Source: a virus (taxonomy: Duplodnaviria; Heunggongvirae; Uroviricota; Caudoviricetes). Taken from it: a DNA stretch of 10,610 bases. A model generated the notes under the pieces. The model ran no database searches. It had not been told where the DNA came from and saw nothing but the letters and a program-made list of their open reading frames with translations. Position 1 is the stretch's first letter. The number at the start of each line of letters is the position of its first letter. Position numbers and translations under genes: made by a program. Where the stretch lies: the IMG/VR virus record IMGVR_UViG_2778261697_000001, one strand, 5' to 3'. Shown here piece by piece: positions 9,832-10,284 of the stretch.

Positions 9832-9860
9832 ATATTAATGAACATTGCAAGGGCTCACAA
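9832..9860 (-). promoter_or_regulatory. Putative sigma70-type promoter for the GIY-YIG gene
   Basis: On the minus strand: -35 TTGTGA, 17-nt spacer, -10 TAATAT, about 30 nt upstream of the ATG at 9799. Pattern match only. Confidence 0.2.
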
Positions 9861-9990
9861 CTAGTAGTGTTGAGAAAGCCATCGGGAAAATGAGGCTAAC
9901 CCTTTGAATTTACATAGCGCAAAAAGATACCTTTCCTCATAATGTGAGCTAATTTTATGTTTCGTTTGATGATCGGGTCGGTCTCGAAAC

Positions 9991-10024
9991 CCGTAGCCAC
10001 GTCGTATGCAAGAACGTGCTACGG
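9991..10024 (-). repeat. Stem-loop B, copy 2 of the hairpin repeat, upstream of the GIY-YIG gene
   Basis: GTAG-c-CACGT-[cgtatgcaaga]-ACGTG-CTAC with two flanking C-G pairs. Homologous to stem-loop A; the outer stem carries a compensatory C-G to T-A change. Confidence 0.4.
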
Positions 10025-10284
10025 TTAGCTGGTGAAATGTCGATAGTGCGAGTGTTGAATAATTTCTAGCCGTTATTGATTTTACGTATTTTTGTATGAG
10101 ATGATTTGCATCTCCTGCCACCGACCATCTATGACTATACGTCACCATTTCTAGGGCTGCTATGTGCCAAGAGCGGTAATTGACAGAGAGCAGCCCTATC
10201 TCAGTGGCTTTATTTTTTTAGAGATTGCAGGTGATGCTGCCAACTTACTGATTTAGTGTATGATGGTGTTTTTGAGGTGCTCCA

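Follow-up and report, generated by a model that had tools for sequence, protein, structure and literature searches.

A probable patchwork of a gene stump, a lambdoid-prophage module, terminator-type hairpins and a short promoter region beside a GIY-YIG nuclease gene in Escherichia coli

The DNA analyzed here (10,610 nucleotides, referred to as the window) is the virus record IMGVR_UViG_2778261697_000001, assigned to Caudoviricetes. Near its right end, a gene for a GIY-YIG nuclease is separated from a copy of the insertion sequence IS1 by a stretch that contains several inverted repeats. An earlier examination of the letters alone (to be referred to as the sequence-only reading) had taken positions 9851–10229 as one structured, non-coding unit of 380 bp, and had suggested that it could serve the nuclease as a regulatory leader or RNA partner, or could be the remnant of an upstream gene destroyed by IS1. 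The locus raises the question of what this interval is made of, and how much of it belongs to the nuclease gene.

The interval is very probably a composite intergenic patchwork, consisting of a gene stump, a lambdoid-prophage module, two terminator-type hairpins and the short promoter region of the nuclease gene. Its position is in the accessory end, similar to a 'b region', of a prophage remnant of the lambdoid/e14 type. The whole spacer between the two flanking genes (9800–10209) was compared by BLAST with 5426 complete E. coli genomes, together with pairwise comparisons. These comparisons divide the spacer into four pieces that are distributed independently of each other, the 3′ flank of a SIR2 gene, B2, B1 and module A, to which a SIR2 stump is added, instead of a single unit. 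The breakpoints are located at ~9991–9996, 10090 and 10176–10183, and upstream of the last of these the homology is restricted to loci with the SIR2 gene. When the whole interval is folded, the minus-strand RNA has a z score of −3.58 (0 of 100 shuffles as good) and the plus strand a z score of −1.71. The apparent 'structure' of the interval stems from terminators and mosaic junctions.

On the minus strand, read from 5′ to 3′, the arrangement begins with 20 bp of the SIR2 gene, the rest of which was removed by IS1. The SIR2 3′ flank follows, pairing with the start of B2 into a strong hairpin, and then the non-coding B2+B1 block, which ends in the hairpin SL2 and most likely terminates leftward transcription of the upstream cargo gene. 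The last ~190 bp belong to the cassette of the nuclease (PD-T4-3/CMoRE), with a proposed degenerate remnant of an upstream terminator, a sigma-70-type promoter and a 5′ untranslated region (5′UTR) of ~25 nt. The nuclease gene would have been inserted as a 'moron' immediately 3′ of the B1 terminator, a direction of events suggested by the comparisons described below, and would carry its own SL2 copy and UUUU after the gene. The features are, in window coordinates:

8967–9003, minus strand: SL2′, a second copy of SL2 (9003–8971) with UUUU (8970–8967), forming a direct repeat of 9992–10026.
9026–9799, minus strand: gene for PD-T4-3/CMoRE, a GIY-YIG type IV modified-cytosine-dependent restriction endonuclease of 257 residues, identified with PADLOC, Pfam and the PDB.
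9800–9986, minus strand: module A, the 5′ flank of the nuclease cassette with a predicted promoter, defined by co-travel with the gene and cross-genus conservation.
9987–10090, minus strand: B1, a conserved prophage RNA module, defined by genome distribution and covariation.
10091–10176, minus strand: B2, a conserved extension of B1, found in about one fifth of the copies, including phage lambda.
10152–10198, minus strand: large inverted repeat, a strong hairpin on the SIR2 3′ side, with a perfect 10-bp stem, an inner 6-bp stem and no U-run.
10210–10229, minus strand: remnant of a 936-residue SIR2 gene, the last five codons (ending QSLKK) and the TAA stop, defined by comparison with the IS1-free locus L001.
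10230–10610, plus strand: the first 381 bp of the right IS1 copy, with its left inverted repeat (IRL) end towards the spacer, annotated as IS1A in the 100%-identical NZ_CP086338.1.

The boundary on the IS1 side is defined by relatives that lack the insertion. The window is 100% identical to the E. coli EJN001/EBJ001 chromosomes, in which two inverted IS1 copies enclose a prophage remnant of 10 kb, with genes for baseplate and tail-fibre proteins, an acyltransferase and the GIY-YIG nuclease. The first base of the right copy is 10230, as read off the window from the terminal sequence GGTGATGCTGCC, and window positions 1–381 are the exact reverse complement of 10230–10610. The same DNA without the right-hand IS1 is present in six complete genomes, which are 100% identical through base 10229 and then continue into a 936-residue gene of the SIR2 family on the minus strand, whose protein product matches Pfam SIR2_2. 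In one of these loci (L001, NZ_CP063503.1), the stop codon of the SIR2 coding sequence maps to the TAA at window 10210–10212. IS1 truncated this gene, and only 20 bp of it (10210–10229) survive.

In the IS1-free genomes, a spacer of 410 bp (9800–10209) separates the two co-directional minus-strand genes, SIR2 and GIY-YIG, and no intact gene extends across the interval. Since the SIR2 stop and the nuclease start have both been placed, the interval of the sequence-only reading corresponds to this 410-bp spacer plus 20 bp of the gene cut by IS1. Its boundaries need correction at both ends, as the nuclease starts at the ATG at 9799 rather than the TTG at 9850, and 10210–10229 is coding. The proposal of a gene destroyed by IS1 holds for these 20 bp of SIR2 and fails for the remainder, which is already intergenic in the IS1-free genomes. 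The bracketing of the remnant by the two IS1 copies suggests that IS1-mediated deletions took the rest of the prophage together with the SIR2 gene. An adjacent P4-like element, present in the IS1-free strain, was probably lost in the same manner. The chromosomal genes directly outside the two IS1 copies in the source genome are a LacI-family regulator gene and rclC.

On the other side of the spacer, the nuclease matches the PADLOC profile PDLC04031 (PD-T4-3) with an E value of 9.3e-140 over residues 1–256 of 256, the Pfam family LEM-3_GIY-YIG, and the solved structures PDB 9U75 (E = 1.4e-171, residues 1–257) and 9U7U (E = 1e-149). Its start is placed at the ATG at 9799 because position 1 of the PADLOC profile aligns with residue 1. 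PD-T4-3 has been renamed CMoRE, a single-component type IV restriction endonuclease (PMC12923530). The purified protein alone cuts DNA with 5-hydroxymethylcytosine (5hmC) or its glucosylated form (5ghmC), and the gene, expressed from either its native or a T7 promoter, confers protection against T2, T4 and T6, with weak activity from the native promoter for one E. coli allele (PMC12923530). An RNA partner is unnecessary for the nuclease, as the purified protein cleaves alone and the gene is protective from a T7 promoter.

Only module A, ~190 bp from 9800 to ~9991, travels with the nuclease gene. It is always found beside a GIY-YIG gene, in at least three different upstream contexts, the sequence upstream of it being B1, a dinI remnant or a tRNA-like fragment. 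It is invariant from the ATG to CGAGACCG in seven cassettes. Homologues of the nuclease in Yersinia, Providencia, Citrobacter, Buttiauxella, Raoultella and Klebsiella (82–85% amino-acid identity) share ~120–150 bp of upstream sequence with the window and diverge further upstream. The shared segment contains the motif TTGTKA-17-TAnnnT, aligned to window 9860–9855 and 9837–9832, and its TTG..A and T positions are invariant in nine homologues from seven genera. In the window, it corresponds to a predicted sigma-70 promoter, with the −35 element TTGTGA (9860–9855), a 17-nt spacer and the −10 element TAATAT (9837–9832). Transcription of PD-T4-3 from this promoter would start near 9825, with a predicted 5′UTR of ~25 nt. 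In several of the other genera, most clearly in Raoultella, a terminator hairpin, GTCCGCTCC-GTGCCA-GGAGCGGAC with a T-run, precedes the promoter. Half of this hairpin recurs, inverted, as the 5′ edge of B2.

These data bear directly on the proposal that the interval serves the GIY-YIG nuclease as a leader regulating in cis (a riboswitch, attenuator or thermosensor) or encodes its RNA partner. Such a role would agree with the location of the interval, upstream of the gene on its coding strand, and with a minus-strand RNA that is more structured than its shuffles. However, only 9800 to ~9991 co-occurs with the nuclease gene, and within this segment the conserved promoter-like motif (9860–9832) stands ~35–60 nt before the ATG, predicting the short 5′UTR described above. 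Moreover, a terminator-type hairpin, SL2, intervenes between B1/B2 and the nuclease gene, B1/B2 are found thousands of times without that gene, and no Rfam family matches. That purified CMoRE is active and that its gene functions under a T7 promoter (PMC12923530) contradicts the RNA partner specifically. Both forms of the proposal are largely refuted and retain very little probability. A false lead is removed in this way, as the defence nuclease would have neither an RNA partner nor a long leader.

Three further observations concern the nuclease gene itself. The E. coli lineage of PD-T4-3 has no Shine-Dalgarno sequence (ACAGATATTGCAAAATG, window 9800–9825, compared with L131–L138 at ~2975–3000); six other genera have AGGAG at 7–8 nt before the ATG. 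In O157 pAR-0428-2 and strain 2-101, the cassette adjoins GGGGGATTTGAACCCCCGGTAGAG, and not B1 (L004 ~6391–6431; L291 ~1690–1731). Its reverse complement resembles a tRNA T-arm, and the sequence is possibly the remnant of a tRNA-derived attachment site. Lastly, full-length PD-T4-3/CMoRE homologues with 55–60% identity are common in metagenome-assembled genomes (L139–L210) of many phyla, among them Planctomycetota, Acidobacteriota, Chloroflexota, Actinomycetota and Nitrospira, a range far wider than enterobacterial prophages.

The distribution of B1 differs from that of module A. The whole-spacer query matched 5392 of the 5426 E. coli genomes, at a median of three places each. Among the matches listed, those with low identity fall in the B block, and B1 accounts for the matches in the 5392 genomes. 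Its copies usually stand at the ends of prophages or close to genes for pin invertase and tail fibres, and one of the K-12 copies is in the Qin prophage, between ynfT and ydfJ′.

Read on the strand that encodes SIR2, the GIY-YIG nuclease and the lambda ea genes (the minus strand), nearly all B1 copies have a two-hairpin fold. In the window, B1 contains GTAAAATC (10085–10078), the two arms of SL1 (10071–10066 and 10032–10027) and SL2 (10024–9991). SL1 has a GGCUGG/CCAGCC stem and a nearly invariant loop of 33 nt. SL2 has the form CCGCAGCACGU...ACGUGnCUGCGG, with a folding energy of −16.4 kcal/mol and a z score of −2.3 in the window, and is a stable G+C-rich hairpin of the kind that characterizes intrinsic terminators.

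The fold was assessed with an alignment of 77 distinct B1 copies (alignment A2), with the structure specified by hand; RNAalifold on MAFFT alignments recovered only the outer pairs of SL2, owing to the length variation of the hairpins. Eight of the 12 pairs in SL2 have changed on both sides, and pairing is maintained in 92% of the cells, compared with 24–49% for slid partners. The observed covariation score was not reached in any of 500 shuffles. Many of the pairs are G-U, which would be A-C mismatches on the other strand, and selection is therefore placed on the minus-strand RNA. In the SL1 stem, a C-G to A-U change is the single compensatory pair, and nine pairs are U-G.

At least five T residues are found within 8 nt past the SL2 stem in 47 of the 77 distinct copies. 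The tail in the window copy is only GUUUC (9990–9986), or GUUUCGAG, because the nuclease cassette begins there. Judged from the folding, the covariation and the U-tract counts, on which the terminator assignment is based, SL2 most likely terminates leftward transcription of the upstream cargo gene. The sequences upstream of B1 are consistent with this role. Of 116 copies, 42 are preceded by an intact dinI-like gene (its product ending ADEWFVH) that stops ~10 nt before B1; ~13 copies follow the decayed end of a dinI-like gene, and ~18 follow B2. At the 5′ edge of B1, only a TAAAAT hexamer is conserved. No conserved −35 element was found upstream of B1, the position varying by context with a poor match to the consensus. 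B1 looks like a shared 3′UTR-plus-terminator module rather than an independent gene.

Two side observations belong to B1. Prophage dinI-like genes (82 residues, ending DTWESADEWFVH) are the commonest genes directly upstream (L078 7597–7845 and many IMG/VR loci), and in K-12 Qin and several other loci all that is left of dinI is its decayed 3′ end, which runs directly into B1 or into the 3′ half of SL2. In addition, many genomes have B1 covered by a pseudogene of 81–87 bp that the NCBI pipeline labels 'capsid protein' (L003 8405–8491; L288 1712–1792). It corresponds to window ~10004–10090 on the plus strand, opposite to the RNA-type element, and consists of a 29-residue fragment, ICKNVLRLAGELPIVRVLNDFQLLSILRI, with no start codon. 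This annotation is probably spurious.

It is possible, although doubtful, that B1, with or without B2, is more than a terminator and functions as a trans-acting or 3′UTR-derived small RNA (sRNA) or as a regulatory 3′UTR of lambdoid prophages. The 33-nt loop of SL1 would then be the seed or protein-binding part, and SL2 with its U-tail the chaperone-binding end. The architecture of two hairpins and a U-tail is in agreement with such a role, as are the compensatory and U-G pairs in the SL1 stem and the presence of B1 in lambda as well as in the 5392 genomes, with no match in Rfam. The SL1 loop is also the most conserved segment. Alignment A2 was fetched with a 17-mer from this loop and is biased towards its conservation, but the loop is equally the most conserved segment in a second alignment (A1), not selected on the loop, and it is still nearly invariant in copies fetched by a scan anchored outside it. 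On the other hand, the neighboring coding DNA in dinI-type loci is nearly as conserved (0.93–0.99 per column, compared with 0.99 for the SL1 loop), so that recent common ancestry explains part of this conservation. The TAAAAT hexamer is only −10-like, and with no conserved −35 element an independent promoter is doubtful. The window copy has a stem-weakening G-to-A change in SL1 and no U-run. An sRNA function of B1 would be compatible with the patchwork explanation.

In the searches made here, no Rfam family matches B1, including AsxR, AgvB, Esr41 and STnc100. With Rfam 15 and E values up to 10, the window gives only three sub-threshold hits to snoRNA models (E 1.5–8.3), all outside the interval of the sequence-only reading. 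Literature searches found no description of a B1 RNA, and a search of papers for the sequence string was also negative. The identification of B1 as a Pas or another known prophage sRNA was rejected, given the lack of an Rfam match; the Pas sRNAs are set apart by their reported distribution only, the PasB sequence not having been compared. B1/B2, nearly universal in E. coli, present in lambda and with no description found, is the one item of some, if mild, novelty. We consider it a tentative idea, less probable than not, that B1 (lambda ~24162–24260) is an undescribed RNA element of ~100 nt whose loop has a function beyond termination, and whose SL2 marks a hotspot of cargo insertion. If so, leftward prophage transcripts, those of dinI-like genes among them, could for example release it as a regulatory RNA derived from their 3′UTR, and PD-T4-3 and lambda ea47 would be exchanged as hairpin-bounded cassettes at SL2. 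An RNA model for B1 would improve prophage annotation and help to locate slots of defence genes.

The interval also contains an open reading frame (ORF) of 95 codons on the minus strand (10148–9861), and an ORF of 63 residues is annotated at the equivalent place in a lambda imm21 record. One minus-strand frame is open through B1 in many copies, and one lambda annotation calls a coding sequence with a ribosome-binding site there. It is nonetheless highly improbable that either is a real small protein. Among 19 other aligned homologues, only L045 has the ATG of the 95-residue ORF, and most of the other aligned copies carry an in-frame TAA, at codon 4. The homologues differ by 1-nt indels, in the A-run, SL1 and SL2, and the ORF crosses two mosaic junctions between independently assorting segments. 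Of 116 B1 copies, 42 are located past another gene's stop codon, and about one frame in five would be open over 33 codons by chance. The 95-residue ORF has no Pfam or PADLOC match. The comparative data refute this ORF as a protein, and B1 as a small protein was rejected on the indels, the non-conserved starts and its position past stop codons. The earlier judgment that the interval lacks coding capacity is correct for this spurious ORF and incorrect for 10210–10229, the SIR2 coding remnant.

B2 extends the homology of B1 towards the SIR2 side. B2+B1 (window 9991–10176) shares 81% nucleotide identity over 186 bp with lambda NC_001416 24162–24347, a part of the b region flanked by ea47 and ea31. 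The literature searches turned up no published function for this ea47–ea31 segment. The copies of B2 differ by 1-nt indels. Several identities for B2 were tried and rejected. A T-arm-like sequence, GGAGGTGCAAATCCTCT, gave the idea of a tRNA or a tRNA-derived attachment site, but ARAGORN and Rfam find nothing at B2; ARAGORN detects no tRNA in the window or in 14 of 15 loci, and the sole tRNA-Thr (L098 1369–1444) is ~10 kb from the B copy of that locus. An origin as a decayed dinI gene gives local alignments no better than shuffles, and a sigma-54 promoter at TGGCAC(N)GC has a spacing one base short. As a separate observation from the Rfam searches, the family IS009 (RF02111) has matches of ~220 bits inside the coding sequences of tfaQ and lambda tfa (L005 2028–2226; L009 655–853), and for this reason this 'RNA family' overlaps a protein-coding region.

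The two inverted repeats pointed out by the sequence-only reading are both present where it located them (9974–9993 and 10152–10198), and they differ in significance. The large repeat has perfect 10-bp arms, TAGGGCTGCT (10152–10161) and AGCAGCCCTA (10189–10198), with a 27-nt loop, and extends to arms of 19 nt with 84% complementarity. As minus-strand RNA it has a folding energy of −23 kcal/mol and a z score of −3.45, with 0 of 200 shuffles as good, so that its structured character is beyond chance. It starts 11 nt past the SIR2 stop codon and straddles a mosaic junction, with the right arm in the SIR2 flank and the left arm in B2; the homology with other B2 copies stops at 10176–10183, inside its loop. 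A short hairpin between B2 and the sequence upstream of it is frequent in other copies too, with partners and lengths that differ. We read the large repeat as a putative 3′ stabilizing or boundary hairpin of the SIR2 unit.

The second repeat, CGGGT (9974–9978) and ACCCG (9989–9993) around a 10-nt loop, is at chance level (−8.2 kcal/mol, z = −1.5, 16 of 200 shuffles as good) and shares bases with the stronger SL2. In four of seven E. coli homologues its 3′ arm is GTCCA instead of ACCCG, with no compensating change. It is not conserved, and does not stand as a notable structure. Taken together, the earlier observation of a structured, non-coding interval is partly confirmed, and its interpretation is partly supported.

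On the far side of the nuclease gene, SL2′ begins 22 nt past the TGA stop (−14.3 kcal/mol, z = −3.3), and it is the predicted terminator of the nuclease cassette itself. The sequence past SL2′ (TTTTCAACTCCGCCAGC...) directly follows SL2 in prophages that lack the nuclease gene. As TTTTCAACTCCGCCAGC adjoins SL2 where the gene is absent, both filled and empty sites are observed, the empty ones in L006/L035, L061, L036 and L107. Other cargo occupies the same slot, ea47 in lambda and a methyltransferase gene in L078. The nuclease gene, with its predicted promoter and terminator, separates elements that elsewhere adjoin each other. It looks like a self-contained 'moron' cassette, and the site looks like a hotspot of cargo insertion beside the tail-fibre/pin genes of lambdoid prophages. 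The SL2-bounded layout is found in 14 of the 116 B1-bearing loci. PD-T4-3/CMoRE would travel as a cassette of ~1 kb with its own predicted promoter and terminator, which defines a minimal native unit for cloning the system and tracing its spread.

The paired hairpins can be described independently of this reading. Three unrelated cargos, PD-T4-3, a 222-residue methyltransferase and lambda ea47, are each located between two same-strand SL2 copies, 1.06–1.66 kb apart and just 3′ of B1. The pairs are at 8967–9003 and 9991–10024 in the window, at 913–947 and ~2500–2540 in lambda (L009), and at 6453–6481 and ~7500–7540 in L078.

Such an arrangement could also arise if the hairpins act as DNA, with SL2-like palindromes as recombination sites for cassette swaps and the conserved blocks as 'linker' homology. 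Three of the four mosaic junctions are in or next to hairpins (SL2 at 9991–9996, the loop of the large repeat at 10176–10183 and SL2′ at 8971–9005), SL2 copies bound three unrelated cargos, and the 5′ edge of B2 is half of a palindromic terminator that precedes PD-T4-3, oppositely oriented, in other genera. However, the G-U/U-G pairs of SL1 and SL2 on the minus strand and the strand-specific U-run indicate selection on RNA, and homologous recombination at any conserved terminator yields an equal pattern with no need for a dedicated function. No recombinase is known that acts on an SL2-type site, and the sites of the neighboring Pin invertase are different ones. A role of the hairpins as DNA is in our view unlikely.

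Several points weigh against the patchwork explanation as set out here. A consensus terminator scanner flags neither SL2 nor SL2′, because it allows no bulge and a loop of at most 8 nt, and these hairpins have a bulged stem and a 9-nt loop. With UUU only after SL2 in the window copy of B1, IS1-free strains may have read-through from upstream. The candidate promoter has 8 of 12 consensus positions, below the 9-of-12 threshold of a simple scanner, and is not reported by it. With an identity of at least 96% among the E. coli cassettes, the structures in module A are beyond covariation testing. Finally, termination alone leaves the very high conservation of the SL1 loop unexplained.

The arrangement can be compared with three known systems. 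The spacer between ea31 and ea47 in lambda has B2+B1 on the same strand relative to the flanking leftward genes, followed by a downstream cargo gene and then a second SL2 copy. It differs in having no U-run after SL2 (CUCUACC) and in its flanking genes.

Some Rho-independent terminators also serve as the 3′ ends of Hfq/ProQ-bound or 3′UTR-derived sRNAs, and examples are the prophage sRNAs of enterohaemorrhagic and enteropathogenic E. coli (EHEC/EPEC), AsxR, AgvB and Pas. They resemble B1 in their prophage location, in having multiple diverged copies per genome, and in a terminal hairpin and U-tail that come after a second hairpin. The Pas sRNAs are reported to be largely restricted to pathogenic lineages (Pas preprint). 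In comparison, B1 is present in almost all E. coli, including K-12, and has no evident promoter of its own.

The closest parallel for the nuclease gene is provided by phage morons, in the concept of Juhala and Hendrix, which are accessory genes with their own promoter and factor-independent terminator located between two phage genes. The PD-T4-3 gene has a promoter-like motif upstream that is conserved across genera and a hairpin with UUUU past its stop codon, and its site is empty in related prophages and filled by unrelated cargos in others. There is one structural difference, however. The terminator of the PD-T4-3 cassette is a near-copy of SL2 at the insertion point, and as a result a hairpin is directly repeated on the two sides of the cassette.

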